Origin: Vampirovibrionales bacterium | GTDB taxonomy: Bacteria > Cyanobacteriota > Vampirovibrionia > Vampirovibrionales > Vampirovibrionaceae | Direction of reading: 5' to 3' | DNA length: 64,000 nucleotides | NCBI GenBank assembly: GCA_016712355.1 | Contig: JADJRF010000005.1 | Location: 2,255,819 to 2,319,818 of the forward strand | In this document: one piece after another, positions 14,248 through 64,000 of the stretch | How the letters are laid out: each line of letters starts with the position of its first letter | How positions within the stretch are numbered: position 1 is the stretch's first letter | Made by a program: the position numbers and the translations under genes | Notes under the pieces: generated by a model | Told to the model about the DNA's origin: nothing | The model's database searches: none | Seen by the model: only the letters and a program-made list of their open reading frames with translations

Positions 14248-16104
14248 ATGGGGCGAGCGGACTGGCAACACGATTCCAGGGCCGGGAGGCTGGCGCCGCT
14301 GCGCTTTTCGCGCATCTCAAATCTGCGGGCCATCTGCGTTTTACTGGCCAGCGCCTGGCTGCTGAACCCGCTGAATACCCCTGCCAGCGCAGAATCGCCG
14401 CCGCCATCTTCTGCTACGCCCGCTTTGGGCGATCTGATTCAGACGCTGCGCCAGGACCCGCGCTCGCCTCTAACGCATCCCCAAGCCGAAAAACCCGCCA
14501 GTCTGGCGGCCCCCGTGGAAGCGCCCGTTTCCCAATCAGATACGGTCACCCCGGAGGCGTCCCCGATCACCGAAGACACGCCGTTTTTTGTTCAAAGCGT
14601 CTCCGTGGAAGGCGTCTCTGCCTTAAACCGTAAAGAGCTCGCGCGCCGGCTGGCTCCGTTTCAAGAAAGCAACGTCACGTTTCGACAATTGAAAGCTCTG
14701 GCGGACTCCCTGACGGCGCTGTATCACGAGCAGGGCTTTGTCACGAGCCAGGTCGTCTTGCCGCCTCAAACGCTGGAAGGACATAGCGTTCAGCTTCAGG
14801 CAATCGAAGGACGTCTGGGCGACGTCCAACTCGAGATGGACCCCGCGCATCCGCTGGTCGGCCGTCGCGCGATCGCGCCGCGCTTGAATCTGGATCGAAA
14901 CGATATCTTCAATCTGCGGGCGATTCGCTCACAACTCAATACGATTAACGAGCATCCCGACATGAAAGTCGGCGCCACGATCCGGGCCTCGCAAACCCCC
15001 GGCGCAACAGATCTGACGCTCACGGCCAAGACGCGTTTTCCGCTGCACATATCGCCGTCACTGGATAACATGGGACGCGAGACCATTGGCGATCTACGCG
15101 TTGGTCTGACGGCGCAAGACACCAACTTATTGGGGTTTGGCGATCAATTGAGCAGCAGTCTGGTCTGGACCCGTCGATCGTTTGGCCATTTCTCGCGCTA
15201 CCGCCTCCCCGTCGGCGCGTATGGCGCCGAGGTCGGTTTTGATTTCGGGCGCAGCGCCCTGCGACTGGGCAACAATCTGACGAAATACGAGATCAGCGGC
15301 CATTCGACAACGTATTCGATCAATCTGACGCAGCCTCTCTACCGCGGAGACTGGCTCAAAATCACAGGGAGCCAGTCGCTTGATATTAAAAATATGGAAA
15401 CCGCCCTGCACAATCAGCCTCTATACGCGGATAATATCCGCGTATGGCAATCCGGGCTGGACATTGAACAATGGGACCGTCTGGGACGAACAATTTTGCA
15501 TCAGGAAATCGGCGTGGGCCTGCCGATTTTTCGAGCCACAGACGGCGGCAGTCGAATGGCCAGCCGACGAAACGCCGGAAGCCGATTTTTTCGCTACGCC
15601 GGACAACTGATGCGCATCCACCGCCTGCCACTGAAGGCCATTGCCGTGCTGCGACTCAATTATCAGGTGAGCCCCGACCGGCTGGTTTCTTCTGAACAGA
15701 TGCAACTCGGCGGCGCGTACTCCGTGCGAGGATACCGGGAGGGATCGCAAATCGGCGACGCCGGGCTGTCGTTCAATGCAGAGTACTACCTGCCGTTGTC
15801 CGCGTTTTTAGGACGCGCGCAAACAACGGGCGGGGCTAACGGCGAAACAATCCTGCGCCCCCCGCACCCTCTTGCAGATGCGATCCAGTTGGTTGCCTTC
15901 AGCGATTTCGGCGCGAGCTGGACCAATCGGCCGCTGGCCAACGGAGACAAGTCTGAATACATGGCCGCCAGCGGCCTTGGCGTTCGCGCCCGTCTCAGCG
16001 AACGGCTGACCGGACGACTCGATCTCGCGCTCCCGCTGCTGCGCTATCGGCTCGACTCTCAGCGGCTGCGCGTTCATTTTGGGCTGCAAAGCGCCCTGTT
16101 TTAG
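14248..16104 (+). CDS. TpsB outer-membrane transporter of the ShlB/FhaC/HecB family (POTRA domains plus Omp85-type barrel)
   Basis: 618-aa ORF with a signal peptide (ICVLLASAWLLNPLNTPASA). A POTRA-like segment (FFVQSVSVEGVSALNRKELARRLAPFQESNVTFRQLKALADSLTALYHEQGFVTSQVVLPPQTLEGHSVQLQAIEGRLGDV) is typical of ShlB-type activators. A C-terminal aromatic-rich barrel follows. It lies divergent from tpsA1. Confidence 0.85.
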   Translation: MGRADWQHDSRAGRLAPLRFSRISNLRAICVLLASAWLLNPLNTPASAESPPPSSATPALGDLIQTLRQDPRSPLTHPQAEKPASLAAPVEAPVSQSDTVTPEASPITEDTPFFVQSVSVEGVSALNRKELARRLAPFQESNVTFRQLKALADSLTALYHEQGFVTSQVVLPPQTLEGHSVQLQAIEGRLGDVQLEMDPAHPLVGRRAIAPRLNLDRNDIFNLRAIRSQLNTINEHPDMKVGATIRASQTPGATDLTLTAKTRFPLHISPSLDNMGRETIGDLRVGLTAQDTNLLGFGDQLSSSLVWTRRSFGHFSRYRLPVGAYGAEVGFDFGRSALRLGNNLTKYEISGHSTTYSINLTQPLYRGDWLKITGSQSLDIKNMETALHNQPLYADNIRVWQSGLDIEQWDRLGRTILHQEIGVGLPIFRATDGGSRMASRRNAGSRFFRYAGQLMRIHRLPLKAIAVLRLNYQVSPDRLVSSEQMQLGGAYSVRGYREGSQIGDAGLSFNAEYYLPLSAFLGRAQTTGGANGETILRPPHPLADAIQLVAFSDFGASWTNRPLANGDKSEYMAASGLGVRARLSERLTGRLDLALPLLRYRLDSQRLRVHFGLQSALF

Positions 16105-46364: not shown

Positions 46365-49300
46365 ATGGGTATTGCGCGCATGCCGCCTCCTTCGGAAAAC
46401 CGCATAGTCAGACGAGCCGGGAATCAACACCGGTATATTTGCCTGACCGCCAAAGGCGCACGCACCCTTCAGACCCACGAAGACGACCTGGTGGGATGGA
46501 TTGGACGCCTTTTCGGCGTCCTCAACGGCGGCCTGACTTGGGGAAAAGCCCTCAAACGCTTTGTGGGCGCGCTGCTGCTCTCGATGATGATTATGCAGCA
46601 GGTTCAGGCCCTTCCCACCGGCTGGCAGGTCGAGAGCGGCGACGTCAATTTCGAGGTCGTCAACGGCAATACGCTCAATATCACCAGCCAGAGCCAGCAG
46701 GCTATCGTCAATTACCAGAGCTTTCATATCGCCCAGGGAGAAAGCGTCAACTTCTTTCTGGGCAATAACTTCTCCTCTATTCTCAACCGGATTCTGGGCG
46801 GGGGGACGAGCTCGATTATGGGCAACCTCAGCGCCAATACCGGAACCGTCATTTTGACCAACCCGGCGGGCATTAACTTTGGCGCCACGGCCAACGTGAA
46901 CGTCGGGAGCCTGATTGCGTCCAGTCTGCATCTGTCCAGCGCCGACTACCTCGCCAATAACTGGACCTTCGGGCGGGTGGACGGGATGGGCCCCGGCGCG
47001 ATCCAGAACAGCGGCAACATCGCCGCGCAATCAGGCGGCTTTGTCGTCCTGTCGGGCGGGGCTGTCAGCAACAGCGGCAATATCTTTGCGCCTGATGGCG
47101 CGGTAAAACTCGCGGTCGGCGACCGAATCCGCCTGTCGATGAGTGGGCAGCAGGCGGTAGAAGTCACCATCGACCAGAGTCTGCTCAGCGCGATAGAGGG
47201 CCTGCGCGACGCGATCGGCAACACGGGCGTGATTGACGCTCATACCATTGAGCTTCAGGCCAAGCTGAGCGAAGCGCTTTATGAACGCACGATCAACAAT
47301 GAAGGCGTGATGCGTACCGTCAGCGCCACGCGCGAAGGCGCCAGCATCAAGGTCCTGGGCTACACGGATAATCAGCTCGCGCAGATCCGCAACGCCGGAA
47401 CCCTCGACGTAAGCGCCAACGCCGTCACGACATTTGACGGCGGCGAACTGACGATGGAAGGCGATCGGGTTGATAATACGGGCAACCTGCTGGCGCGCGG
47501 GGCCGACACGGGCCACGGCGGCCGTATTCACGCCTTGGGCGGACAGGTGGCGTTTCATGGAACCGCCATTGTAGATGCATCCGGCGGGACCGGCGGCGGC
47601 GAAGTGCTTATCGGCGGCGACTTCCAGGGCCAAAACCCCGCAATCCGCAATGCGCAGAAAACATGGGTGACCCGCGACGTTCAAATCAAGGCGGACGCCA
47701 CGCAACAGGGCGACGGCGGTAAAGTCATCGTCTGGGCGGATCAATCGACCCAATACTATGGCCATATCAGCGCCCAAGGCGGCGCACAAGGCGGCGACGG
47801 CGGCCTGGTAGAAGTCTCCGGCAAAGAAAACCTCGCCTTTATGGGCGACGTCGACACCCGCGCCGTCAACGGCGCCATGGGGACCGTCCTGCTGGATCCG
47901 ACGGATATCAACATCGTCGACGGCGCCGGGGCGGACGACGCGCAACTCAATGACGACCAGATTCTCGCCGCAGACGCGCCCGCCACCATGAACATCGGCG
48001 AAACCAAGCTGGAATCGATGGCCGCCACTTCCAACGTGGTGCTTCAGGCCAACAACAACATCACCGTAAACAACCTGACGGATAACACGCTGGGGCTGGC
48101 CGCCACCACCGGATCCATCACGCTGACCGCCGACGCCGACAACAGCGGGGCCGGGACGTTCTCGATGGCCGATACGGCCGACGTCATTCGCACAGAGGGC
48201 GGTAATATCACCATCAGCGGCGCGTCGGTCACGCTGGGCAAACTCAGCACCAAGGGCGCGGCGGGCGATAAAACCGGCGGCGCGATCAGCGTCAGTTCGC
48301 GCGATGCGCTCACTGCCAGCGGGACGATTGATACCGGCAACGGCGCCATTAGCCTCAATGCGGATTCTGACGGCAGCGGCGCCGGGACCCTCACCGTCAG
48401 CGCCAACGTCACCTCCGGCGGCGGCAACGTCACGCTCAAAGGCGATCAATTTGACCTGAATAACGCGCTCGACGCCGGAAGCGGCAGCGTGAGCATCACG
48501 GCCAGTAATAATATTCGTATTAACGTGGGCAACGCGACAGATAACGGCGACGGCGCCACGCTTTTTGACGTCTCCAACCCGGAACTCAACCGTATTACCG
48601 CCGCCAGCGTCACTATCGGCGATACCACCACCACCAACAACCAGCTCTATACGATGGGCGATCTGGATCTCTCTGGAAGCGGCGCCGGTAAATTCGCGCT
48701 CACCCTGCAGAATATGAACAAAATCAATCTGCAGAATAATATCACGCTGGGCGGTTATAACTTTACTGCCTACTCCAGCGCCGGCGACGTTCAACTGACC
48801 AGTAATAAAGACATCACCAAAACCACCGGGGGAGACGCGACGCTCACGTTCAAAGCTGCGGGCAATATTATTCTCAACGCGGCAGCAGGCGCAACCAGTG
48901 ACCTTACCTCCAGCAGCAATAAACTCAATGTCATTTTCAATTCGGATAGCGACGCTTCTGGCAGTGGGGCCATCTATTTAAATTATGTCAACCTCACCAG
49001 CAATAGCGGCAACGTAACCTTCGGCGGCGGCGCAGACCCCACCACAACAGCCGCCCGCGGAAACGCAACTTATTTCAATGGCGTCAACATCAGTCAGAGC
49101 GCCTTTACATTAGGCGCCGGCAATCTCGGCATTCGGGGCCAAGGCTATAGTATCGGTACGTCCGGCGCTCATCATGGGATTAATATTGACGGCACAACAC
49201 TTTCCAGCACCAGCGGAAATATGACCCTCGTCGGAACAGGCGGCACCGGCAATAGTAGCACCGGAAACCGCGGAATTCTAACCTCTTACCTCACACTCAC

Positions 49301-52300
49301 GACCGCAGATGGCGCGATTTCTTTAACCGGCACAGGCGGGGCTAGCGCAGCAACAGAAAATACAGGCGTAGAGTTCAACTACGGCTCCTTTTCCGCCAGC
49401 GGTTCTGGGGGAATCAGTATCACGGGAACCGGAACCGGGAGCGGCAATAATGCTTATGGCGTCGCGGTTAAAGTTGTTAATACCTTTCAGACCAATACGG
49501 GCGCTATCAGCCTGTCAGGCACTAGCAACGGCACCGGCGCGAATTATAACAATGGCGTCTCTGTTGACGCTTCTACCATCAATACTCTGGGCGGGAATAT
49601 TGCGTTTACCGGGACCGGCAGTAGCACAGCTACGGGAATTGAGAATCATGGCGTTTTTATCAATGCATCGTCTGTCTCTACGACCGGCGCGGGGACGTTG
49701 AGCTTAACCGGGACCGGGGGTAAGGGGACCAATGATAACCATGGGGTCGATATTCGCCAGACGTCCAGCGTGAGTACGGCGTCTGGGGACCTCACCATCG
49801 TGGGGAACGGACTGGCTAGCGCGACGGGCAGTTGGAATCTAGGAGTGCTATTAGGGTATTCTTCTGGTATTTCTTCTCAGAATGGTAACATCAACATCAC
49901 CGCCACCGGGGGCGGCAGCTCCGGCGGCGGCGCGGGTATTGATATGTGGGACCTGTCCACGATTCAAGCCACCGGCACTGGGAACATCTCGATTACCGGA
50001 ACCGCCACCGGCAGCGCCGCAGACTCGTATGGGATCTGGCTCGAAGGCAGCAGCAAGGTGATTGCAGCCTCTGGCAATATTACGCTGACTGGCACGGGCG
50101 GCGGCGCCAATAACGACCTTCGGTTTGAATCGCTCTCTACCGGAACGGGTAATGTGATCGGCGCCAATACCATGACGGGTAATATTACGCTGATTGGCAA
50201 TAGTTACACGTTCTCGGATTTTAAATTCCAGAATAACGGCGGGACGCTGACGTTTAAACCCAGAACCGCCAGCACCAGCATTGGCGTGGCAGGCGGCGCG
50301 GGGGCGCTGAGTTTTACGGACGCCAGCTTCTTTAATTTTATCGATACGGCGACGGTTTCTCCGGGCAAAATTATCCTGGGCGATAAATCGCTGGGCAGCG
50401 GCGCGGTGAATATTAACGCGTATAACTACAGCGCCAAGGCCTATGATATTGATATCGCCGGCGGCAGCGTGACGCTGGCAGGCGCCTTGACCACCGGCGC
50501 CAACGATGCGGGACTCTATGCGCTCAGCGGCAATTTGTTGCTGAATAATACCATCAGCGGAACAGGTAACGTGTTATTACAGGCTTCTGGCACGATTAAC
50601 GACGACGGCGCAACCGATCGCGTGTCGACCTCTGGACTTCTTACGCTGAATGCGGGCGGCAACGTCGGCAATACCTCTACTTTTAATACGTCAGTGGGCT
50701 CGCTCGCAATTAATGGCACAGGAGCCGGCAGCATCAGTATTACCGAAGCGAATGCCATCACCATTAACGCTTCCAGCGCAACGCAAGCCGTCAGCGTGAT
50801 TGCGGGCGGTAATATTACAACCGCCGGCGCCATTACCACCACGGGCAACCTGACGCTTCAAACCACGGCCGGCACGCTGGACGCCGCGGGCGGGAATCTC
50901 ACGTCCTCAGGAGACTTGAGCCTGAGCGCGACCGGGGCTTTAACGCTCGATACAGCCGGGACGAGCAGAACGCATCAGGCGAAAAATATTAATTTAACCG
51001 GCAGCAGCATTACCGTGGCCAACAGCGGTACCGTTGTTGAAGCCACCGGCAGCGGCAGCAATACAACCTTAAGTTACGATGACAATGCGGGTACGGCCGG
51101 CATTTTACCCATCACGCCCGGCGATACCATTAGCGCAACCGGCGGCGCAGGCGGCATTATTAACAGCACCGGCGATCTGGCGAATGCAGGGACGCTTCGC
51201 GCTCTTGGCAAAACCGGCAGCGTCACGGTTAATTATGACAGCAGCAATTTAAACCTGAATAACGTTACGATAACCGTCACCGGCAGCAGCGGATCCATTA
51301 ATTTATCGGGCGACGTATCGGGCAGCGGCAATAACGGCACGCTCACGCAACAAACCGGCGGCTCCACGGTCACCCTCAATACAACCGGCGGATACGGCGT
51401 TTCTGGAAGCAACGTGAATATCACCAGCAGCAATATTATATTCGGCGTTTCGGGCAGCGCCAACTTGAGCGGGAATTTCCATAACGGTATTCTGTCGGGC
51501 TCGTCTGGAAGCAGCTTTTCGCTTACCGACACCGCCAGTGACATTACCACCGGCGCCCTGACCGCCGGGAGCGCCTTGAGCCTGTCCAGCATCACGCACC
51601 TGACCGCAGGCGGCGCGCTGACTTCTACCGGCGCTTTAACGTTAATTGCCGACAGCGACGGCAATAACACCGGCTCCCTCACCAGCAACGGCGTTCTCAC
51701 CAGTAATAATAACGCCATTACCCTCAAAGGCGCACAAGCCGATATAAACGCCAGCGTCAACGCCGGTTCCTCCACCGTCACGCTCACGGCCATGAGCGAT
51801 AAGGAAATTGACGTGGCAGGCGCAACGGATAACGCCGACAGCGGCACGATATTCGACGTTTCCAGCGCGGAATTAGGCAGAATCACTGCCGCGACCGTCA
51901 CCATCGGCGATACGACGACGCCCAATTCGGATACCATCCTGAAAGGCGCGCTGGATCTCTCCGGTTCCGGCGCTGGCAAATTTAATCTTCAACTGCTGAA
52001 TAAGCGCGATGTTATTTTCGACGCCGCCACCGGCATTACCGCTGGCGCCCATACCGTCACCCTTACCGCCAATGACGACGTGACGCTCAACAGCGGCATC
52101 ACCACCAGCAATGGCGCCATTACCCTGACGGCAGACAACGACGGCAGCGGCGCCGGAGCCTTGACGATCAGCGGCAATATCACTTCCGGCAATGCCAATG
52201 TCACGCTCAAAGGCGATCAATTTGACCTCAACAACGCGCTCAACGCCGGAAGCGGCAGCGTCAGCATTACCGCCAGTAATAATATTCGAATAGATGTTGG

Positions 52301-55300
52301 CAATGCGACCGACAATAACGACACGGCAACGCTTTTTGACGTTTCAAACCCGGAACTCAACCGAATCACCGCCGCCAGCGTCACCATCGGCGATACAACC
52401 ACCACCAACAATCAGCTTTACGCCATGGGCGTGCTGAACATGTCCGGCGCCGGCGCCGGTAAATTCGCGCTCACCTTACAGAATATGAATAAAATCAATC
52501 TGCAAAACAATATTACGCTGGGCGGCTATGACTTTACGGCTTATTCCAGCGCCAACAACGTTCAACTGACCGCCGGAAGAGATATCACCAAAAGCGCCGG
52601 CGGCGACGCAACACTCACCCTGAAGGCCGCCGGGAATGTCATTCTGGATTCCACCGTCGGCAACTATAACACTGTCTCTTCCAGCAGCAACAAACTCCAT
52701 GTCGTTATCAACTCCGACAGCGACGCCTCCGGCAGTGGGGCTGTATTTCTGGATTATGTTGATTTCACCACCAATAACGGCAATATCACCATCGGCGGCG
52801 GCGCCGACCCGAGCCTGAGCGCAGCCAGAGGAAACGCAACTTATTATGACGGCGTTTATTTAAATGGCAGCCTGGACACAGGCGCCGGCAATATCTCTGT
52901 CCGAGGGCAAGGCTTCAGTCAGGCCGGAACCGATAACCATTACGGGATCAACCTGAGTGCAGTCATTAGCACTACCACAGGCGATGTCTCCCTGATTGGC
53001 AGCGGAGGCACAGGACGCGACAATCTTTTCGGGATATTTGGCTCTCTTGCGGCCAGCACGCAAAACGGAGACATCACGCTGACGGGTACTGGCGGCAATG
53101 GCACCGGAGGAAACAATAAGGGGATTTATTTATCGGGTTCTCTAACCACGCAAGATGGCATTATGACCATCACGGGGACTTCCGGCATTGGATTAGGAGG
53201 AGATGAGGGAATACATTTGTCTGGACAAACCATCTCTTCATCGACGGGTAATATTTCTCTAGTTGGAAATAGCGTCGGGGCAGGCAGTGGAATTGTAATA
53301 CAGAGTTCAACGATATCGTCTGCTGACGGACTGATTAGCATGGTCGGCACGGGCGGGAGTAATAATCCTAGCGCTGCATATGTAAATGGAATTAGCATCT
53401 ATAACTCTGCACAAGTGTTCACCACTGGCACAGGCAATATCACCCTGACAGGTACGGGCGGACTCGGCACTTTTGATGGCGGCGGCATTTGGGAAAATAA
53501 CGGCGTTGAATTTGATGGTTCAGCCCAGGTTTATACCGCCAGCGGCACGCTCACGATTACAGGCACTGCCATTGACGGCAACTCAGCCGATATCGGCATG
53601 CCATTTCCCAGCGCAACCAGCACAATTGGCGCCAACACGATGACGGGTGATATCGTCATGATTGGCAACAGTTTTGATTTTACTTACGGCCAGATTCGCA
53701 ATAATGGCGGTAATATTATCTTTAAACCGCGAACCGCCAGCACGACTATCGGCATTAACGGCGGCGCAGGCGCATTAAGCTTTACCAACGCCAATTTCTT
53801 TAATTATATTGATACCACCACGGCCTCGCCCAGCAAAATAATTCTCGGCGACAGCGCCGCAGGGACCGGCGCCGTCAACATCGCAACCGGCTGGGATTTC
53901 AGCGGCAAAGCGTACGATATCGACGTGTACGGCGGCAGCATTACCGGAGCCGGAAGCATTACCACCGGAGCCAACAATTTAGGACTTTACGCCCGCACCG
54001 GTGGACTCACCCAGAATGGCGCGATTACCAGCCTTGGCAATTTAATCCTGCAATCCAATGGACTTCTTGACCTCAACGGCAATATTCAAACGACCGGCGG
54101 CAATTTAACGTTAACAGCCAACGGCGGCGGTAATATTACGCTGGACGACGCCGGAAGCGCGCGCACGCACAAAGGGCAAAACGTCACCATTACCGCCACT
54201 GGCGGCGGAACCATCAGCATGTCCAACGCTGGCTCTCTCGTGCAGGCGACCGGAACCGGCATCGGCGCCACTTATGATGATAACGGCGGGACGCCTTATC
54301 TGCCGATTAATCCAGGGGATAGCATCGGCGCCGCAGTGGGAGGCGCAGGCGCACTGACAGTCGACGGAAACTTCTCAAGCGTCGGCACGCTGCGCGCGTC
54401 ATCTGGCAGCGGCGATATTACGATTAATTATAGCAGCAGCGACTTAAACCTCAATAACGTCACAATTGATACCGCAACGGCTGCAAATGGAAGCATTAGC
54501 ATTTTAAACGACCTGCCGTCGGGCGCGGGAGATAATGGCACTATTGACGCTCAAGCCGGGAGCAGCGGCGGCACGGTCACCCTGAACATCACCAATGGGC
54601 ATAATGTTTCAGGAACCAATACCAACATCACGGCCAATAATATTGTTTTCAATGTTGCCGGTAATAGCACGTTGAGCGGAAATTTCCATAATGGAATTTT
54701 GTCAGGCTCCTCGGGCGGCAGCTTCTCACTCACTGATACCGCCTCCAGTCTCAACCTCAACTCCCTCTCCGCCGCTACCAACCTCTCCATCACCGCCGCC
54801 CTCGGACATATCGACGCCGCAAATACCCTCTCCGCCAGTAATATCTCACTCATCACTCAATCCAATGGCGATATCACTCTGCACGACAACCTCACCGCCA
54901 CCAACAACCTCACTCTCACACTCGACGGAACCGGCGTCCTCACCCAGTCCGCAGGCGTCCTCTCCGCGCAAACTCTCTCCCTCGATACCCATACCTCCGT
55001 CGGCTCCGCACTCGACAGGCTCGATACCAATATCTCCAACCTCTCCGCCACTATCCAGGGGCCCGCTCACCACCTCTTCCTCGCCGAAGCCAATAACCTC
55101 TCCATCAACGCTTCTTCCGCCTCCGGAACACTCGATATCACCGCCGCTGGCGATATTACTACCGCCGGCGACATCTCCGCCGATGCCACAACCCTCGCCT
55201 CCTCTGACCCCGATGGCGATATCGCCCTCAATCATAACGTTACGGGCACTACTTCCCTCACCATCACCGCCTCAGGCACTGGCGATATTACCCAGTCCGC

Positions 55301-58300
55301 AGGCGTCCTCAACGCCGGAACCCTTGCGCTGAGCTCGACCTCCGGCGACATCGGAACCGCAGGCAACGCCATCGATTCCAATGCCACCGCAGCCTCTCTC
55401 AATACATCCGGCGACGCCTTCCTCTCTGAGGCCAATAACCTCACCATCAATGCCTCCGCCGTCGGCGGCACTCTTGAAATTTCCGCCGCTGGCGATATCG
55501 CCACCGCTGGCGCCATCTCCGCCGATGCCACAACCCTCGCCTCCTCTGACCCCGATGGCGATATTACACTCAATCATAACGTCACAGGGACTACTTCCCT
55601 CACCATTACTGCCTCAGGCACTGGCGATATTACCCAGTCCGCAGGCGTACTCAACGCCGGAACACTCGCGCTGAGCGCGACCTCCGGCGACATCGGAACC
55701 GCAGGCAACGCCATCGATTCCAATGCCACCGCCGCTTCTCTCAATACCACAGGCGACGCCTTCCTCTCTGAAGCCAGTAACCTCACCCTCAATGCCTCTG
55801 CCGTCGGCGGCACGCTTGAAATTTCCGCCGCTGGCGATATTACCACCGCTGGCGCCATTTCCGCCGACGCCACGACCCTCGCCTCCTCTGACCCCGATGG
55901 CGATATCTCCCTCAATCATAACGTCACAGGCACTACTTCCCTCACCATTACTGCCTCAGGCACTGGCGATATTACCCAGTCCGCAGGCGTCCTCAACGCC
56001 GGAACCCTTGCGCTTTCCTCCACCTCCGGCAACATCGGAACCGCAGGCAACGCCATCGATTCCAATGCCGCCGCAGCCTCCCTCAATACATCCGGCGACG
56101 CCTTCCTCTCTGAGGCCAATAACCTCACCATCAATGCCTCTGCCGTCGGCGGCACGCTTGAAATTTCCGCCGCTGGCGATATTACCACCGCCGGCGCCAT
56201 TTCCGCCGATGCCGCCTCCATCGCCTCCTCTGACCCCGATGGCGATATTACACTCAATCATAACGTCACAGGGACTACTTCCCTCACCATTACTGCCTCA
56301 GGCACTGGCGATATTACCCAGTCCGCGGGAACCATTACAGGCGGACTCCTCACCTTTAACTCAAACGGCGGACTCGGAACCGCTCTCGACAGACTCGATA
56401 TCAATGCCGCCACACTCACACTCAATACCGCCGGCGACCTCTTCCTCAACGAAACCGATAACATTACCCTCAACGCCGCCACCGCCCTCCATACCCTCGA
56501 CCTCGCCGCCGCTGGCAATATCACCCTGCAAGGCAACCTCAACGCCGCCGATACCCTCACCCTCAACTCCGCCACTGGCGATATCCACCTCGATAACGGA
56601 GCCGCGCTCACTCACCAGTCCTCCACCATCTCCTTTACCGCACATAACATCGATATCGCTCACGCCGGCACTCTCGTACACGCCATCGGCAACTCCGGCG
56701 GCGCTTCCTTCGACGACCACGGCGGAACCGCCGTCAACCCCGGCGATACCATTAACGCTCTCGGAGCAGGCGGCACCATCACCATCGATGGCAACTTCGC
56801 CTCCGTCGGAACCCTACAGGCACAAGCCGGCGGCACCGTCTCCATCGACTACCAGAACTCTGACCTCGACCTCTCCAACGTCACCATCAACGCTGGCGGC
56901 GGCGGCGGCGGTACTATCACCTTCCTCAACGACCTCCCCTCAGGCCCAGCCAATAACGGAACCCTCTCCGCCCTCGGCGACTCCGTCAACGTCCTCATTT
57001 CCACCGCCAATAACCACAGCGTCTCCGGAACCGGACTCCTCATTAACGCCACCGGCGGCGTTCAGTTCCATATCGATAACTCCCTCAACCTCTCAGGCAA
57101 CTTCAACCAGGCCGAACTCTCCGGCTACGCCACCAATGGCAGCTTCTCACTCACCGATACCGCCTCCAATCTTAACCTCAACTCCCTCTCCGCCGCTACC
57201 AACCTCTCCATCACCGCCGCCCTCGGACATATCGACGCCGCAAATACCCTCTCCGCCAGTAATATCTCACTCATCACTCAATCCAATGGCGATATCACTC
57301 TGCACGACAACCTCACCGCCACCAACAACCTCACTCTCACACTCGACGGAACCGGCGTCCTCACCCAGTCCGCAGGCGTCCTCTCCGCGCAAACTCTCTC
57401 CCTCGATACCCATACCTCCGTCGGCTCCGCACTCGACAGGCTCGATACCAATATCTCCAACCTCTCCGCCACTATCCAGGGGCCCGCTCACCACCTCTTC
57501 CTCGCCGAAGCCAATAACCTCTCCATCAACGCTTCTTCCGCCTCCGGAACACTCGATATCACCGCCGCTGGCGATATTACTACCGCCGGCGACATCTCCG
57601 CCGATGCCACAACCCTCGCCTCCTCTGACCCCGATGGCGATATCGCCCTCAATCATAACGTTACGGGCACTACTTCCCTCACCATCACCGCCTCAGGCAC
57701 TGGCGATATTACCCAGTCCGCAGGCGTCCTCAACGCCGGAACCCTTGCGCTGAGCTCGACCTCCGGCGACATCGGAACCGCAGGCAACGCCATCGATTCC
57801 AATGCCACCGCAGCCTCTCTCAATACCACAGGCGACGCCTTCCTCTCTGAGGCCAATAACCTCACCATCAATGCCTCTGCCGTCGGCGGCACTCTCCAGA
57901 TCGCCGCCGCTGGCGATATCGCCACCGCTGGCGCCATTTCCGCCGACGCCGCCTCCATCGCCTCCTCTGACCCCGATGGCGATATTACCCTCAATCATAA
58001 CGTCACAGGGACTACTTCCCTTACCATTACTGCCTCAGGCACTGGCGATATTACCCAGTCCGCAGGCGTACTCAACGCCGGAACACTCGCGCTGAGCGCG
58101 ACCTCCGGCGACATCGGAACCGCAGGCAACGCCATCGATTCCAATGCCACCGCAGCTTCTCTCAATACCACAGGCGACGCCTTCCTCTCTGAAGCCAGTA
58201 ACCTCACCCTCAATGCCTCTGCCGTCGGCGGCACGCTTGAAATTTCCGCCGCTGGCGATATTACCACCGCTGGCGCCATCTCCGCCGATACCGCCTCCAT

Positions 58301-60956
58301 CGCCTCCTCTGACCCCGATGGCGATATTACCCTCAATCATAACGTCACGGGCACTACTTCCCTCACCATTTCTGCCTCAGGTACTGGCGATATCACCCAA
58401 TCCGCAGGCGTCCTCAACGCCGGAACCCTTGCGCTGAGCGCGACTTCTGGCAACATCGGAACCGCAGGCAACGCCATCGATTCCAATGCCGCCGCAGCCT
58501 CCCTCAATACATCCGGCGACGCCTTCCTCTCTGAGGCCAATAACCTCACCATCAATGCCTCTGCCGTCGGCGGCACGCTTGAAATTTCCGCCGCTGGCGA
58601 TATCGCCACCGCTGGCGCCATTTCCGCCGATACCGCCTCCATCGCCTCCTCTGACCCCGATGGCGATATTACCCTCAATCATAACGTCACAGGCACCACG
58701 TCCCTCACCATTACCGCCTCAGGCACGGGCGATATCACCCAATCCGCAGGAACCATTACAGGCGGACTCCTCACCTTTAATACCAACGGCGGACTCGGTA
58801 CCGCTCTCGACAGGCTCGATATCAATGCCGCCACCCTCACGCTCAATACCACCGGCGACCTCTTCCTCAACGAATCCGATAACATTACCCTCAACGCCGC
58901 CACCGCCCTCCATACCCTCGACCTCGCCGCCGCTGGCAATATCACCCTGCAAGGCAACCTCAACGCCGCCGATACCCTCACCCTCAACTCCGCCACTGGC
59001 GATATCCACCTCGATAACGGAGCCGCGCTCACTCACCAGTCCTCCACCATCTCCTTTACCGCACATAACATCGATATCGCTCACGCCGGCACTCTCGTAC
59101 ACGCCATCGGCAACTCCGGCGGCGCTTCCTTCGACGACCACGGCGGAACCGCCGTCAACCCCGGCGATACCATTAACGCTCTCGGAGCAGGCGGCACCAT
59201 CACCATCGATGGCAACTTCGCCTCCGTCGGAACCCTACAGGCACAAGCCGGCGGCACCGTCTCCATCGACTACCAGAACTCTGACCTCGACCTCTCCAAC
59301 GTCACCATCAACGCTGGCGGCGGCGGCGGCGGTACTATCACCTTCCTCAACGACCTCCCCTCAGGCCCAGCCAATAACGGAACCCTCTCCGCCCTCGGCG
59401 ACTCCGTCAACGTCCTCATTTCCACCGCCAATAACCACAGCGTCTCCGGAACCGGACTCCTCATTAACGCCACCGGCGGCGTTCAGTTCCATATCGATAA
59501 CTCCCTCAACCTCTCAGGCAACTTCAACCAGGCCGAACTCTCCGGCTACGCCACCAATGGCAGCTTCTCACTCACCGATACCGCCTCCAATATCAACCTC
59601 AACTCCCTCTCCGCCGCTACCAACCTCTCCATCACCGCCGCCCTCGGACATATCGACGCCGCAAATACCCTCTCCGCCAGTAATATCTCACTCATCACTC
59701 AATCCAATGGCGATATCACTCTGCACGACAACCTCACCGCCACCAACAACCTCACCCTCACACTCGACGGAACCGGCGTCCTCACCCAATCCGCAGGCGT
59801 CCTCTCCGCGCAAACTCTCTCCCTCGATACCCATACCTCCGTCGGCTCCGCACTCGACAGGCTCGATACCAATATCTCCAACCTCTCCGCCACTATCCAG
59901 GGGCCCGCTCACCACCTCTTCCTCGCCGAAGCCAATAACCTCTCCATCAACGCTTCTTCCGCCTCCGGAACACTCGATATCACCGCCGCTGGCGATATTA
60001 CTACCGCCGGCGACATCTCCGCCGATGCCACAACCCTCGCCTCCTCTGACCCCGATGGCGATATCGCCCTCAATCATAACGTCACAGGCACTACTTCCCT
60101 CACCATCACCGCCTCAGGCACTGGCGATATTACCCAGTCCGCAGGCGTCCTCAACGCCGGAACCCTTGCGCTGAGCTCGACCTCCGGCGACATCGGAACC
60201 GCAGGCAACGCCATCGATTCCAATGCCACCGCAGCCTCTCTCAATACCTCAGGCGACGCCTTCCTCTCTGAGGCCAACAACCTCACCATCAATGCCTCTG
60301 CCGTCGGCGGCACTCTCCAGATCGCCGCCGCTGGCGATATCGCCACCGCTGGCGCCATCTCCGCCGACGCCGCCTCCATCGCCTCCTCTGACCCCGATGG
60401 CGATATTACCCTCAATCATAACGTCACAGGGACTACTTCCCTCACCATTACTGCCTCAGGCACTGGCGATATTACCCAGTCCGCAGGCGTACTCAACGCC
60501 GGAACACTCGCGCTGAGCGCGACCTCCGGCGACATCGGAACCGCAGGCAACGCCATCGATTCCAATGCCACCGCAGCTTCTCTCAATACCACAGGCGACG
60601 CCTTCCTCTCTGAAGCCAGTAACCTCACCCTCAATGCCTCTGCCGTCGGCGGCACGCTTGAAATTTCCGCCGCTGGCGATATTACCACCGCTGGCGCCAT
60701 CTCCGCCGACACCACGTCCCTCGCCTCCTCTGATCCCGCTGCCGATATTACCCTCTATCCTACCGTCACAGTGACTACGTCCCTCACCATTTCTGCCTCA
60801 GGCACTGGCTATATTTCCCGGTCCGCAGGCGTACTCAACGCCGGATCCCTCGCGCTGAGCGCCACCTTCCGGCAACATCGGAACCGCAGGCAACGCCATC
60901 GATTCCAATGCCGCCGCAGCCTCCCTCAATACATCCGGCGACGCCTTCCTCTCTGA
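46365..60956 (+). CDS. second giant TpsA/filamentous-haemagglutinin-like exoprotein (tpsA2); frame intact for 4863 codons, after which the same repeat protein continues in shifted frames to the window end
   Basis: The N-terminal TPS domain is paralogous to tpsA1 (LPTGWQVESGDVNFEVVNGNTLNITSQSQQAIVNYQSFHIAQGESVNFF...NPAGINFG...). It is followed by thousands of residues of Gly/Thr/Ala/Ser/Asn-rich beta-helix-type repeats. The apparent stop at 60954-60956 results from a +1 insertion near 60867. Confidence 0.85.
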   Translation: MGIARMPPPSENRIVRRAGNQHRYICLTAKGARTLQTHEDDLVGWIGRLFGVLNGGLTWGKALKRFVGALLLSMMIMQQVQALPTGWQVESGDVNFEVVNGNTLNITSQSQQAIVNYQSFHIAQGESVNFFLGNNFSSILNRILGGGTSSIMGNLSANTGTVILTNPAGINFGATANVNVGSLIASSLHLSSADYLANNWTFGRVDGMGPGAIQNSGNIAAQSGGFVVLSGGAVSNSGNIFAPDGAVKLAVGDRIRLSMSGQQAVEVTIDQSLLSAIEGLRDAIGNTGVIDAHTIELQAKLSEALYERTINNEGVMRTVSATREGASIKVLGYTDNQLAQIRNAGTLDVSANAVTTFDGGELTMEGDRVDNTGNLLARGADTGHGGRIHALGGQVAFHGTAIVDASGGTGGGEVLIGGDFQGQNPAIRNAQKTWVTRDVQIKADATQQGDGGKVIVWADQSTQYYGHISAQGGAQGGDGGLVEVSGKENLAFMGDVDTRAVNGAMGTVLLDPTDINIVDGAGADDAQLNDDQILAADAPATMNIGETKLESMAATSNVVLQANNNITVNNLTDNTLGLAATTGSITLTADADNSGAGTFSMADTADVIRTEGGNITISGASVTLGKLSTKGAAGDKTGGAISVSSRDALTASGTIDTGNGAISLNADSDGSGAGTLTVSANVTSGGGNVTLKGDQFDLNNALDAGSGSVSITASNNIRINVGNATDNGDGATLFDVSNPELNRITAASVTIGDTTTTNNQLYTMGDLDLSGSGAGKFALTLQNMNKINLQNNITLGGYNFTAYSSAGDVQLTSNKDITKTTGGDATLTFKAAGNIILNAAAGATSDLTSSSNKLNVIFNSDSDASGSGAIYLNYVNLTSNSGNVTFGGGADPTTTAARGNATYFNGVNISQSAFTLGAGNLGIRGQGYSIGTSGAHHGINIDGTTLSSTSGNMTLVGTGGTGNSSTGNRGILTSYLTLTTADGAISLTGTGGASAATENTGVEFNYGSFSASGSGGISITGTGTGSGNNAYGVAVKVVNTFQTNTGAISLSGTSNGTGANYNNGVSVDASTINTLGGNIAFTGTGSSTATGIENHGVFINASSVSTTGAGTLSLTGTGGKGTNDNHGVDIRQTSSVSTASGDLTIVGNGLASATGSWNLGVLLGYSSGISSQNGNINITATGGGSSGGGAGIDMWDLSTIQATGTGNISITGTATGSAADSYGIWLEGSSKVIAASGNITLTGTGGGANNDLRFESLSTGTGNVIGANTMTGNITLIGNSYTFSDFKFQNNGGTLTFKPRTASTSIGVAGGAGALSFTDASFFNFIDTATVSPGKIILGDKSLGSGAVNINAYNYSAKAYDIDIAGGSVTLAGALTTGANDAGLYALSGNLLLNNTISGTGNVLLQASGTINDDGATDRVSTSGLLTLNAGGNVGNTSTFNTSVGSLAINGTGAGSISITEANAITINASSATQAVSVIAGGNITTAGAITTTGNLTLQTTAGTLDAAGGNLTSSGDLSLSATGALTLDTAGTSRTHQAKNINLTGSSITVANSGTVVEATGSGSNTTLSYDDNAGTAGILPITPGDTISATGGAGGIINSTGDLANAGTLRALGKTGSVTVNYDSSNLNLNNVTITVTGSSGSINLSGDVSGSGNNGTLTQQTGGSTVTLNTTGGYGVSGSNVNITSSNIIFGVSGSANLSGNFHNGILSGSSGSSFSLTDTASDITTGALTAGSALSLSSITHLTAGGALTSTGALTLIADSDGNNTGSLTSNGVLTSNNNAITLKGAQADINASVNAGSSTVTLTAMSDKEIDVAGATDNADSGTIFDVSSAELGRITAATVTIGDTTTPNSDTILKGALDLSGSGAGKFNLQLLNKRDVIFDAATGITAGAHTVTLTANDDVTLNSGITTSNGAITLTADNDGSGAGALTISGNITSGNANVTLKGDQFDLNNALNAGSGSVSITASNNIRIDVGNATDNNDTATLFDVSNPELNRITAASVTIGDTTTTNNQLYAMGVLNMSGAGAGKFALTLQNMNKINLQNNITLGGYDFTAYSSANNVQLTAGRDITKSAGGDATLTLKAAGNVILDSTVGNYNTVSSSSNKLHVVINSDSDASGSGAVFLDYVDFTTNNGNITIGGGADPSLSAARGNATYYDGVYLNGSLDTGAGNISVRGQGFSQAGTDNHYGINLSAVISTTTGDVSLIGSGGTGRDNLFGIFGSLAASTQNGDITLTGTGGNGTGGNNKGIYLSGSLTTQDGIMTITGTSGIGLGGDEGIHLSGQTISSSTGNISLVGNSVGAGSGIVIQSSTISSADGLISMVGTGGSNNPSAAYVNGISIYNSAQVFTTGTGNITLTGTGGLGTFDGGGIWENNGVEFDGSAQVYTASGTLTITGTAIDGNSADIGMPFPSATSTIGANTMTGDIVMIGNSFDFTYGQIRNNGGNIIFKPRTASTTIGINGGAGALSFTNANFFNYIDTTTASPSKIILGDSAAGTGAVNIATGWDFSGKAYDIDVYGGSITGAGSITTGANNLGLYARTGGLTQNGAITSLGNLILQSNGLLDLNGNIQTTGGNLTLTANGGGNITLDDAGSARTHKGQNVTITATGGGTISMSNAGSLVQATGTGIGATYDDNGGTPYLPINPGDSIGAAVGGAGALTVDGNFSSVGTLRASSGSGDITINYSSSDLNLNNVTIDTATAANGSISILNDLPSGAGDNGTIDAQAGSSGGTVTLNITNGHNVSGTNTNITANNIVFNVAGNSTLSGNFHNGILSGSSGGSFSLTDTASSLNLNSLSAATNLSITAALGHIDAANTLSASNISLITQSNGDITLHDNLTATNNLTLTLDGTGVLTQSAGVLSAQTLSLDTHTSVGSALDRLDTNISNLSATIQGPAHHLFLAEANNLSINASSASGTLDITAAGDITTAGDISADATTLASSDPDGDIALNHNVTGTTSLTITASGTGDITQSAGVLNAGTLALSSTSGDIGTAGNAIDSNATAASLNTSGDAFLSEANNLTINASAVGGTLEISAAGDIATAGAISADATTLASSDPDGDITLNHNVTGTTSLTITASGTGDITQSAGVLNAGTLALSATSGDIGTAGNAIDSNATAASLNTTGDAFLSEASNLTLNASAVGGTLEISAAGDITTAGAISADATTLASSDPDGDISLNHNVTGTTSLTITASGTGDITQSAGVLNAGTLALSSTSGNIGTAGNAIDSNAAAASLNTSGDAFLSEANNLTINASAVGGTLEISAAGDITTAGAISADAASIASSDPDGDITLNHNVTGTTSLTITASGTGDITQSAGTITGGLLTFNSNGGLGTALDRLDINAATLTLNTAGDLFLNETDNITLNAATALHTLDLAAAGNITLQGNLNAADTLTLNSATGDIHLDNGAALTHQSSTISFTAHNIDIAHAGTLVHAIGNSGGASFDDHGGTAVNPGDTINALGAGGTITIDGNFASVGTLQAQAGGTVSIDYQNSDLDLSNVTINAGGGGGGTITFLNDLPSGPANNGTLSALGDSVNVLISTANNHSVSGTGLLINATGGVQFHIDNSLNLSGNFNQAELSGYATNGSFSLTDTASNLNLNSLSAATNLSITAALGHIDAANTLSASNISLITQSNGDITLHDNLTATNNLTLTLDGTGVLTQSAGVLSAQTLSLDTHTSVGSALDRLDTNISNLSATIQGPAHHLFLAEANNLSINASSASGTLDITAAGDITTAGDISADATTLASSDPDGDIALNHNVTGTTSLTITASGTGDITQSAGVLNAGTLALSSTSGDIGTAGNAIDSNATAASLNTTGDAFLSEANNLTINASAVGGTLQIAAAGDIATAGAISADAASIASSDPDGDITLNHNVTGTTSLTITASGTGDITQSAGVLNAGTLALSATSGDIGTAGNAIDSNATAASLNTTGDAFLSEASNLTLNASAVGGTLEISAAGDITTAGAISADTASIASSDPDGDITLNHNVTGTTSLTISASGTGDITQSAGVLNAGTLALSATSGNIGTAGNAIDSNAAAASLNTSGDAFLSEANNLTINASAVGGTLEISAAGDIATAGAISADTASIASSDPDGDITLNHNVTGTTSLTITASGTGDITQSAGTITGGLLTFNTNGGLGTALDRLDINAATLTLNTTGDLFLNESDNITLNAATALHTLDLAAAGNITLQGNLNAADTLTLNSATGDIHLDNGAALTHQSSTISFTAHNIDIAHAGTLVHAIGNSGGASFDDHGGTAVNPGDTINALGAGGTITIDGNFASVGTLQAQAGGTVSIDYQNSDLDLSNVTINAGGGGGGTITFLNDLPSGPANNGTLSALGDSVNVLISTANNHSVSGTGLLINATGGVQFHIDNSLNLSGNFNQAELSGYATNGSFSLTDTASNINLNSLSAATNLSITAALGHIDAANTLSASNISLITQSNGDITLHDNLTATNNLTLTLDGTGVLTQSAGVLSAQTLSLDTHTSVGSALDRLDTNISNLSATIQGPAHHLFLAEANNLSINASSASGTLDITAAGDITTAGDISADATTLASSDPDGDIALNHNVTGTTSLTITASGTGDITQSAGVLNAGTLALSSTSGDIGTAGNAIDSNATAASLNTSGDAFLSEANNLTINASAVGGTLQIAAAGDIATAGAISADAASIASSDPDGDITLNHNVTGTTSLTITASGTGDITQSAGVLNAGTLALSATSGDIGTAGNAIDSNATAASLNTTGDAFLSEASNLTLNASAVGGTLEISAAGDITTAGAISADTTSLASSDPAADITLYPTVTVTTSLTISASGTGYISRSAGVLNAGSLALSATFRQHRNRRQRHRFQCRRSLPQYIRRRLPL

Positions 60957-63900
60957 GGCCAATAACCTCACCATCAATGCCTCTGCCGTCGGCGGCACGC
61001 TTGAAATTTCCGCCGCTGGCGATATCGCCACCGCTGGCGCCATTTCCGCCGATGCCGCCTCCATCACCTCCTCTGACCCCGATGGCGATATTACCCTCAA
61101 TCATAACGTCACAGGGACCACTTCCCTCACCATTACCGCCTCAGGCACGGGCGATATCACCCAATCCGCAGGAACCATTACAGGCGGACTCCTCACCTTT
61201 AATTCCAACGGCGGACTCGGAACCGCTCTCGACAGGCTCGATATCAATGCCGCCACCCTCACGCTCAATACCACCGGCGACCTCTTCCTCAACGAATCCG
61301 ATAACATTACCCTCAACGCCGCCACCGCCCTCCATACCCTCGACCTCGCCGCCGCTGGCAATATCACCCTGCAAGGCAACCTCAACGCCGCCGATACCCT
61401 CACCCTCAACTCCGCCACTGGCGATATCCACCTCGATAACGGAGCCGCGCTCACTCACCAGTCCTCCACCATCTCCTTTACCGCACATAACATCGATATC
61501 GCTCACGCCGGCACTCTCGTACACGCCATCGGCAACTCCGGCGGCGCTTCCTTCGACGACCACGGCGGAACCGCCGTCAACCCCGGCGATACCATTAACG
61601 CTCTCGGAGCAGGCGGCACCATCACCATCGATGGCAACTTCGCCTCCGTCGGAACCCTACAGGCACAAGCCGGCGGCACCGTCTCCATCGACTACCAGAA
61701 CTCTGACCTCGACCTCTCCAACGTCACCATCAACGCTGGCGGCGGCGGCGGCGGTACTATCACCTTCCTCAACGACCTCCCCTCAGGCCCAGCCAATAAC
61801 GGAACCCTCTCCGCCCTCGGCGACTCCGTCAACGTCCTCATTTCCACCGCCAATAACCACAGCGTCTCCGGAACCGGACTCCTCATTAACGCCACCGGCG
61901 GCGTTCAGTTCCATATCGATAACTCCCTCAACCTCTCAGGCAACTTCAACCAGGCCGAACTCTCCGGCTACGCCACCAATGGCAGCTTCTCACTCACCGA
62001 TACCGCCTCCAATATCAACCTCAACTCCCTCTCCGCCGCTACCAACCTCTCCATCACCGCCGCCCTCGGACATATCGACGCCGCAAATACCCTCTCCGCC
62101 AGTAATATCTCACTCATCACTCAATCCAATGGCGATATCACTCTGCACGACAACCTCACCGCCACCAACAACCTCACCCTCACACTCGACGGAACCGGCG
62201 TCCTCACCCAATCCGCAGGCGTCCTCTCCGCGCAAACTCTCTCCCTCGATACCCATACCTCCGTCGGCTCCGCACTCGACAGGCTCGATACCAATATCTC
62301 CAACCTCTCCGCCACTATCCAGGGGCCCGCTCACCACCTCTTCCTCGCCGAAGCCAATAACCTCTCCATCAACGCTTCTTCCGCCTCCGGAACACTCGAT
62401 ATCACCGCCGCTGGCGATATTACTACCGCCGGCGACATCTCCGCCGATGCCACAACCCTCGCCTCCTCTGACCCCGATGGCGATATCGCCCTCAATCATA
62501 ACGTCACAGGGACTACTTCCCTCACCATTACTGCCTCAGGCACTGGCGATATTACCCAGTCCGCAGGCGTCCTCAACGCCGGAACCCTTGCGCTGAGCTC
62601 GACCTCCGGCGACATCGGAACCGCAGGCAACGCCATCGATTCCAATGCCACCGCAGCCTCCCTCAATACCACAGGCGACGCCTTCCTCTCTGAGGCCAAT
62701 AACCTCACCATCAATGCCTCTGCCGTCGGCGGCACTCTCCAGATCGCCGCCGCTGGCGATATCGCCACCGCTGGCGCCATTTCCGCCGACGCCGCCTCCA
62801 TCGCCTCCTCTGACCCCGATGGCGATATTACCCTCAATCATAACGTCACAGGGACTACTTCCCTCACCATTACTGCCTCAGGCACTGGCGATATTACCCA
62901 GTCCGCAGGCGTACTCAACGCCGGAACACTCGCGCTGAGCGCGACCTCCGGCGACATCGGAACCGACCCTCGCCTCCTCTGACCCCGATGGCGATATTAC
63001 CCTCAATCATAACGTCACAGGCACTACTTCCCTCACCATTACTGCCTCAGGCACTGGCGATATTACCCAGTCCGCAGGCGTCCTCAACGCCGGAACCCTT
63101 GCGCTTTCCTCCACCTCCGGCAACATCGGAACCGCAGGCAACGCCATCGATTCCAATGCCGCCGCAGCCTCCCTCAATACATCCGGCGACGCCTTCCTCT
63201 CTGAGGCCAATAACCTCACCATCAATGCCTCTGCCGTCGGCGGCACGCTTCAAGTCTCTGCCGCCGGCGATATCGCCACCGCTGGCGCCATTTCCGCCGA
63301 TGCCGCCTCCATCACCTCCTCTGACCCCGATGGCGATATTACCCTCAATCATAACGTCACAGGGACTACTTCCCTCACCATTACTGCCTCAGGCACTGGC
63401 GATATTACTCAATCCGCGGGAACCATTACAGGCGGACTCCTCACCTTTAACTCAAACGGCGGACTCGGAACCGCGCTCGACAGACTCGATATCAATGCCG
63501 CCACACTCACACTCAATACCACCGGCGACCTCTTCCTCAACGAAACCGATAACATTACCCTCAACGCCGCCACCGCCCTCCATACCCTCGACCTCGCCGC
63601 CGCTGGCAATATCACCCTGCAAGGCAACCTCAACGCCGCCGATACCCTCACCCTCAACTCCGCCACTGGCGATATCCACCTCGATAACGGAGCCGCGCTC
63701 ACTCACCAGTCCTCCACCATCTCCTTTACCGCACATAACATCGATATCGCTCACGCCGGCACTCTCGTACACGCCATCGGCAACTCCGGCGGCGCTTCCT
63801 TCGACGACCACGGCGGAACCGCCGTCAACCCCGGCGATACCATTAACGCTCTCGGAGCAGGCGGCACCATCACCATCGATGGCAACTTCGCCTCCGTCGG

Positions 63901-64000
63901 AACCCTACAGGCACAAGCCGGCGGCACCGTCTCCATCGACTACCAGAACTCTGACCTCGACCTCTCCAACGTCACCATCAACGCTGGCGGCGGCGGCGGC
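54690..64000 (+). repeat. 2421-bp (807-aa) super-repeat with at least 3.8 near-identical copies, each containing 4 x 342-bp (114-aa) sub-repeats; the array runs off the window
   Basis: Identical alternate-frame ORFs recur at 54846, 57267, 59688 and 62110. The spacings are 2421, 2421 and 2422 bp; the extra base is the frameshift. Within each unit, 342-bp sub-repeat ORFs are consecutive (55232, 55574, 55916; 57653, 57995, 58337 ...). The protein repeat is GDITQSAGVLNAGTLALSSTSGDIGTAGNAIDSNATAASLNTSGDAFLSEANNLTINASAVGGTLEISAAGDI.TAGAISADA..LASSDPDGDITLNHNVTGTTSLTITASGT. Confidence 0.9.
60700..64000 (+). pseudogene. 3' continuation of the tpsA2 repeat array carrying a substitution cluster with a +1 frameshift (about 60715-60870) and a roughly 170-bp intra-repeat deletion (about 62965) that creates a TGA at 62980-62982; either a disrupted gene or an assembly artefact
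   Basis: The canonical gcgacctccggcgacatcgg reads gccaccttccggcaacatcgg at 60861-60880, with an extra T. Preceding codons carry unusual substitutions (PDGD to PAAD, NHNVTGT to YPTVTVT). At 62961-62990, gacatcggaacc joins directly to gaccctcgcctcctctgaccccgatggc, skipping about 57 codons of the unit. After this the repeat continues in a third frame. Confidence 0.5.

Follow-up and report, generated by a model that had tools for sequence, protein, structure and literature searches.

Exoproteins of the two-partner secretion (TPS) pathway, such as FhaB/FHA, EtpA, HMW1 and HxuA, possess an N-terminal TPS domain, are very large, and carry a long shaft of beta-strand repeats. The gene considered here, tpsA2, resembles them in its TPS domain and in its size, and its long array of short repeats may form a shaft of the same kind. 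It is located in a 64-kb stretch (64,000 nucleotides, referred to below as the window) of contig JADJRF010000005.1 from a Vampirovibrionales bacterium, where the list of open reading frames (ORFs) places it at 46365..60956 on the + strand, with 4,863 codons. In a Pfam search, residues 84-316 matched the TPS domain PF05860 (E 4.5e-17, 63 bits against a cut-off of 33.5), and a phmmer comparison of the N-terminus with solved secretion domains from the PDB returned EtpA (6e-50), HMW1 (1e-27) and HxuA (9e-18). The secretion domain defined by these matches occupies 46614..47312 on the + strand and, because of it, the predicted product is a TpsA exoprotein of the two-partner secretion pathway. The label tpsA2, used in a preliminary description of this DNA, is therefore reasonable. 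The best TpsA matches of the product are in a Vampirovibrionales genome. In the deposited record the frame of this gene is broken twice within the repeat shaft. We lean towards the explanation that both breaks are consensus or polishing faults of a long-read metagenome assembly rather than mutations, and that tpsA2 is probably intact in the organism.

The shaft contains at least four superrepeats of 2,421 nt (807 residues), which begin at about 54717 (starts at 54717, 57138, 59559 and 61981). The array extends on the + strand over 54717..64000, where it is cut by the end of the window; it was recognized from offset identities, from the repeat families D1-D20, with Tandem Repeats Finder (TRF) and from matches to PF18886. 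As judged from the offset identities, any two superrepeats are 98-100% identical, and within each there are about 3.6 units of 342 nt (114 residues) of the DUF5649 type, a repeat that Pfam matched in tpsA2 with E 1.5e-15. The units are 80-100% identical among themselves, and the earlier statement that the unit carrying the first break is otherwise perfectly conserved is not borne out. In another genome, a Vampirovibrionales metagenome-assembled genome (MAG) from the same wastewater sample, the TpsA protein P0003 shares the 114-residue unit with tpsA2 and continues after it into a C-terminal region that is not repetitive. P0003 and P0005, TpsA proteins of one MAG, are nearly identical to each other over their N-terminal ~470 residues. 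A single-sequence AlphaFold2 model of three tpsA2 units was all-beta and periodic, with low confidence (pLDDT, the predicted local distance difference test, 61), and its Foldseek matches in the PDB were beta-solenoids at non-significant values (E 0.4 or higher); a beta-helical shaft is what knowledge of the family would predict. With the canonical superrepeat as query there was no homologue at E 1e-10 or better, a threshold that may be too strict for short fragments. A 2,779-residue N-terminal query found no relatives among the representative genomes scanned, and an exact look-up returned no record identical to the 4,863-residue ORF.

Three-frame translation follows the repeat protein in the frame of 46365..60956 as far as ...LALSATF. 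The protein resumes one base later as APPSGNIGTAGNAIDS... and resumes a second time, one further base on, at 62966 (TLASSDPDGDITL...), from which point it runs to the end of the window. All three parts are on the + strand. The first ends at TGA 60954-60956 after an out-of-frame tail of 30 codons; the second, in frame +1, occupies 60859..62982 and ends at TGA 62980-62982; the third, in frame +2, occupies 62966..64000 and is still open as it leaves the window. The two frame disruptions are therefore present as they had been described, both in translation and in alignment with the sister copies, and the repeat protein does continue in other frames, its previously reported peptides being reproduced exactly. 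The open frames past the lesions prove little, since wrong frames in this region are also open for hundreds of codons. Wrong-frame ORFs on the + strand (55723-57753, 58486-60174 and 60908-62596) recur at the repeat period, as do many ORFs of about 100 residues on the - strand of 54500-64000. These are by-products of a C-rich, stop-poor repeat and are not for annotation. The repeat protein is free of methionine and its gene avoids GTG and TTG codons; in the true frame, 60859-62979, there are 707 consecutive codons without ATG, GTG or TTG.

The first lesion is in unit 3 of superrepeat 3 (60602..60944, + strand), which outside 60702-60867 is 99-100% identical to the other copies of unit 3. Between 60734 and 60846 (+ strand) this unit carries 12 substitutions, 7 of them at A and 3 at G. 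Ten are transversions and ten are nonsynonymous, and in the alignment with the sister copies all 12 fall at columns that are invariant in 10 other copies. At 60867..60868 (+ strand) the record reads TT in place of the single T of the sister copies, as GCCACCTTCCGG. This produces a +1 shift, leading to the TGA at 60954-60956, and is seen in the repeat search as a unit spacing of 342, 342 and 343. Elsewhere superrepeat 3 has a single private variant in 1,830 aligned nt, so that the density of private variants is 10.6% in the patch and 0.05% in the rest of this superrepeat. For 12 substitutions in 113 nt the Poisson probability is ~6e-24, and 4e-12 under the most generous background; this clustering is far beyond chance.

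The nature of these substitutions may be compared with that of the natural differences among superrepeats (n=113). The latter are distributed 30/1/82 over the three codon positions, include 68 transitions and 45 transversions, and are 66% synonymous, which is the signature of coding sequence under selection. In the patch, the distribution over codon positions is 4/6/2, indistinguishable from uniform (P 0.37). The two sets differ with Fisher P values of 2e-4 for codon position and 5e-3 for transitions and transversions. The patch thus looks like noise and not like evolution. Purines of the + strand account for 10 of the 12 changed sites (P 0.003) and adenines for 7 (P 0.004), and 9 of the changes lead from purine to pyrimidine. 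This purine bias is atypical both for Nanopore errors and for natural divergence.

Inspection of the translated patch shows that it turns SSDPDGDITLNHNVTGTT...GTGDITQ into SSDPAADITLYPTVTVTT...GTGYISR. The motifs DGD, N/G-H and GTGDI are broken, and these are kept in the 14 other window units that could be read (the scan did not recover a fifteenth, which follows the deletion junction) as well as in 4 of 4 units of P0003. With the extra T included, the patch spans 135 nt, and the correct unit-3 markers that flank it are 189 nt apart. At sites that distinguish unit 2 from unit 3, 3 of 4 inside the patch are of the unit-2 type, while outside it 8 of 8 are of the unit-3 type. Since unit-2 markers are found within a unit-3 frame, sequence of another register, together with noise, must be present in the patch. 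The extra T is also informative. The natural unit-3 alleles at this position are GCGAC-TTCTGG (superrepeat 2) and TCCACC-TCCGG (superrepeats 1 and 4). The string in the record is the union of both, carrying the allele-specific C of one and the allele-specific T of the other, and a string of this kind is what a partial-order consensus would be expected to yield from a mixed pile-up.

The second lesion is a deletion. Relative to superrepeats 1-3, superrepeat 4 is without 173 nt at 62965|62966 (junction 62964..62966, + strand), the missing part corresponding to superrepeat-3 coordinates 60544-60716, and in the repeat search with TRF the unit spacing at this place is 169 instead of 342. The deletion adds a further +1 shift, leading to TGA 62980-62982. 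At the junction, ...GGCGACATCGGAACCG, from the A-half of unit 2, is joined to ACCCTCGCCTCC..., from the A-half of unit 3. The join is out of register, with at most 2 nt of microhomology, for which CG is the sole candidate. It had been proposed that two non-adjacent parts of one unit were joined here; the out-of-register join is real, but the parts belong to unit 2 and unit 3. The further proposal of a recombination or collapse junction, in the usual sense of those terms, is unsupported. Homologous recombination or a k-mer collapse between repeats would keep the register and take out 342 nt, a multiple of it, or 2,421 nt, and homologous repeat collapse was therefore rejected for this lesion. 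A junction that is out of register and has no more than 2 nt of homology implies that lesion 2 is either an illegitimate deletion or a fault of consensus building. In long-read polishing, Racon trims low-coverage ends of its own polishing windows and can delete sequence. The lesions affect different copies of the superrepeat, yet their repeat coordinates adjoin: 17 nt separate the right end of the deletion from 60734, where the private substitutions start. Together they cover approximately one 342-nt unit (60544-60868 in superrepeat-3 coordinates). This coincidence at one repeat coordinate suggests a common cause for both.

Past the lesions the sequence has not decayed. In the 880 alignable nt past the lesion site, superrepeat 3 has no private variants and superrepeat 4 has 7, of which 5 are synonymous, with none falling at a second codon position. 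There is no sign here of relaxed constraint downstream of the first lesion. The lesions are marked by specific strings, namely a 29-mer from the patch (CCCTCTATCCTACCGTCACAGTGACTACG), the extra-T string (GCGCCACCTTCCGGCAAC) and the deletion junction (GACATCGGAACCGACCCTCGCCTCCTCTGA). The patch 29-mer and a junction 30-mer have no exact match in the metagenome contigs of the Joint Genome Institute (JGI), and a 42-mer across the junction, the only string scanned there, has none in the species-representative genomes; nor did the searches recover a second assembly of this organism. Six-frame peptides of the patch found no match in the protein database; this last result is uninformative, because canonical fragments were likewise unmatched and there was no positive control.

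An independent view of the locus is provided by short-read data. Two window proteins were found in exactly one other place, the 39.5-kb Logan contig SRR11674035_5070 (run SRR11674035). This contig and window 6067-44346 are identical (100.000%) along 38,280 nt, free of mismatches and gaps. Its left end (window 6067) is at the edge of a 234-nt tandem array in a second gene of the family, tpsA1. Its right end corresponds to window 45558, inside the gene for serine hydroxymethyltransferase (SHMT), where no repeat is evident; strain variation or a drop in coverage may have stopped the contig there. Exact look-ups with four assumed start codons of rpiB gave no record of the Illumina contig expected next, with rpiB and the beginning of tpsA2. 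SRR11674035 consists of Illumina data from Fredericia (Danish) wastewater sludge, collected in 2018, with a paired Nanopore run, SRR11673978 (PMC11809585). Its Illumina reads have a length of 151 nt (302 nt per pair). In the pipeline published for this sample, assembly with CANU 1.8 (corMinCoverage=0) is followed by Racon with the Nanopore reads, by two rounds of medaka and, as a last step, by Racon with the Illumina reads under --include-unpolished (PMC8012365). The one high-quality Vampirovibrionales MAG of that study, which carries P0003 and P0005, is a different genome from that of the window, or at least a separate record. Short reads cannot span at least 9 kb of 2.4-kb repeats that are 98-100% identical, and the window must therefore come from a long-read assembly; we infer that it was made by this pipeline. 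It has been reported that polishers which assign every read to a single position miss errors in one repeat copy, and that all of 100 test genomes acquired errors from Racon (Wick and Holt 2022, PMC8812927). The present record has the features expected of such faults, in that the defects are in near-identical repeat copies while the unique sequence matches an independent Illumina contig, and the changes in the patch are random by codon position, unlike the natural spectrum.

These observations may be accommodated by the following scheme. The window would have been built from Nanopore reads, with polishing by 151-nt Illumina reads as a later step. Among tandem copies that are 98-100% identical, each short read would go to the copy that it matches best, and a defective copy would receive scant or misplaced support, so that it would stay uncorrected or even worsen. 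In this way a read-sized stretch, noisy and of the wrong register (unit-2 type), could have overwritten unit 3 of superrepeat 3, ending in a one-base join containing both alleles and hence in a frameshift, and a segment of 173 nt could have been dropped at the neighboring repeat coordinate of the next copy. We favor an artefact because of the noise-like spectrum, the broken motifs, the read-sized patch of foreign register, the frameshift that unites two alleles and the lack of decay, and also because the lesions are situated precisely where polishing fails, in an assembly that is otherwise perfect. The earlier suspicion that the first lesion reflects a low-quality consensus is in this respect strengthened, by the spectrum, the read-sized patch, the markers of a foreign unit, the allele union and the absence of downstream decay; the choice that it left between an artefact and a recent pseudogene still stands. 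Several points weigh against an artefact. The call was made from assembled sequence and not from reads, and the pipeline that produced the window was deduced. None of the 12 private bases recurs in another copy within the window, and a simple mixing of sister copies fails to explain them. A deletion of 173 nt is large for a polishing fault. The rest of the array is clean, and a local burst of errors therefore requires a special cause. Residual Nanopore errors are mostly indels, and the patch consists of 12 substitutions and 1 indel. Finally, giant adhesin genes do turn into pseudogenes in nature.

The most serious competing possibility, to which we would give rather less than an even chance, is that the 173-nt deletion, if not both lesions, is genuine and arose very recently in the sequenced population, and that tpsA2 is a fresh pseudogene. 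The lesions are, after all, unambiguous in the record, and the unique regions of the assembly are perfect. The out-of-register junction is unlike an assembler's collapse of a repeat, just as a patch so rich in substitutions is unlike the residual errors typical of Nanopore data, and the break would be final, with no restart codon in the 707 codons past lesion 1. For this to be true, however, two rare events would be required within 2.1 kb, at adjacent repeat coordinates and with no other decay. Nor does any known bacterial process correspond to near-random substitution of ~10% of the bases in one 113-nt patch, the spectrum of which departs from the natural divergence within the array, and the extra T resembles an allele union. 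The same patch might instead be a gene-conversion tract, or the product of mismapped reads, from a diverged unit outside the window, for instance in the downstream part of tpsA2 or in another tpsA. It is true that tpsA2 extends beyond the window, that the unit-2 type markers show that sequence of another register did enter, and that related repeats exist in another genome of the sample (P0003). We nevertheless consider this improbable: there is no donor within the 64 kb, where the best other copy is 88% identical, and the 10 amino-acid changes against 2 synonymous ones in 37 codons are the reverse of the pattern that an old, functional paralogue would bring. Shifted or reverse registers also fail to account for the private bases; when a mixed-register or reverse-complement origin was tried for these 12 bases, only chance-level matches were obtained (28-34% identity over the whole segment).

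The bias of the patch towards purines raises the question of a mutagenic process. That it records real, local mutagenesis with a purine or adenine bias, whether retroelement-like or driven by damage, with the deletion in the next copy marking the same hotspot, seems to us very improbable. Still smaller is the probability that we would attach to a targeted hypermutation of adenines or purines in an adhesin repeat unit, resembling that of diversity-generating retroelements. The excess of changes at A, a base that makes up only 20% of the sequence, and at + strand purines would be expected from such a mechanism, and a patch of 113-135 nt is within the range of its variable repeats. On the other hand, 5 of the 12 changes are at G, C or T sites that are invariant in 10 copies, the target would be a beta-solenoid repeat in the middle of a gene instead of a C-terminal fold of the lectin type, and the outcome is a broken frame. 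Moreover, no reverse-transcriptase family was found in the Pfam scans of the gene-like window ORFs of at least 150 residues, nor among the Pfam hits of the Logan gene calls. Least probable of all, to the point of being negligible, is that programmed ribosomal frameshifting restores the frame. Both shifts are in the same direction (+1), but the second is a 173-nt deletion relative to the sister copies and not a recoding site, the zone of overlap at lesion 1 (60859-60953) reads ACC TTC CGG and is without a slippery motif, and the sister copies encode the identical peptide with no shift. This possibility was set aside as contradicted by the sequence.

If the lesions were real, the product would be a TpsA protein of 4,863 residues with an intact TPS domain and a nonsense tail of 30 residues, and everything past superrepeat 3 would be lost, including the downstream repeats and the C-terminus. 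The downstream part could not be translated separately, because the true frame is without ATG, GTG or TTG for 707 codons. N-terminal fragments of FHA are secreted and, by analogy, a truncated tpsA2 product would probably still be exportable. If, as we prefer to think, the breaks are faults of the assembly, the value of these observations is mainly that of a quality flag: this wastewater bacterium probably encodes an unbroken exoprotein exceeding 5,800 residues, which the record under-reports, and annotation pipelines will label its gene a pseudogene. The case illustrates how near-identical tandem repeats escape polishing with short reads. Under either reading the biology is ordinary, a real break representing a young pseudogene without a new principle.

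As for the surroundings of tpsA2, the sole tpsB gene in the window (14248..16104, with POTRA_2, ShlB and Omp85 domains in Pfam) adjoins tpsA1. Within the window, Pfam found no tpsB directly upstream of tpsA2, where rpiB and the SHMT gene are situated instead. The tpsA1 gene (2737..14070, - strand, 3,777 residues) is intact and divergent from tpsB, and its 234-nt unit is present in 8.2 tandem copies at 4175-6104. The other genes are also intact: gatB, a two-component system, mlaE, an ABC ATPase, a xerC-like integrase, flagellar rod genes, lpxB, lpxI, uvrC, a C5 methylase, metX/metW, a family-4 glycosyltransferase, the SHMT gene and rpiB. The remainder of the window is ordinary chromosome. The integrase is a XerC/D-like tyrosine recombinase (24007-25041, Phage_integrase with a SAM-like N domain) located directly beside flgB and flgC. 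A gene for a very-short-patch repair endonuclease of the Vsr type (26241-26651) is separated by ~10 kb from the C5 cytosine methylase gene (36287-37441), unlike the classical dcm-vsr pair, in which the two are adjacent.

Finally, the locus may be compared with the systems that it resembles. It differs from TpsA proteins of the FhaB/FHA type in that its shaft consists of 2,421-nt superrepeats at 98-100% identity, in that it has no adjacent tpsB in the window, the only one being 30 kb away beside tpsA1, and in that its frame is broken twice in the record, with the C-terminus beyond the window. Like the frameshifted pseudogenes of large adhesins, it has a premature stop past an indel in a repeat array and an intact secretion domain upstream, but it lacks their signs of relaxed downstream constraint. 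Natural repeat dynamics favor the gain or loss of units in register, and lesions of the present types, a noise patch at 10% and a deletion out of register, are unusual for them. The variable repeats of diversity-generating retroelements share with the patch a length of ~113-135 nt and an excess of changes at adenines; in contrast, 42% of the changes in the patch are at bases other than A, the protein scaffold is different, and neither a reverse transcriptase, by the Pfam scans of the window ORFs, nor a template repeat was found within the 64 kb. Errors left in repeats by Nanopore polishing (PMC8812927) are typically homopolymer indels, whereas the defects of tpsA2 are a patch rich in substitutions and the loss of 173 nt. 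The pipeline described for the sample, which we presume to be the source of the window, uses Racon with one alignment per read, as in that reported case, and in both a near-identical repeat copy is defective while the unique sequence is perfect.

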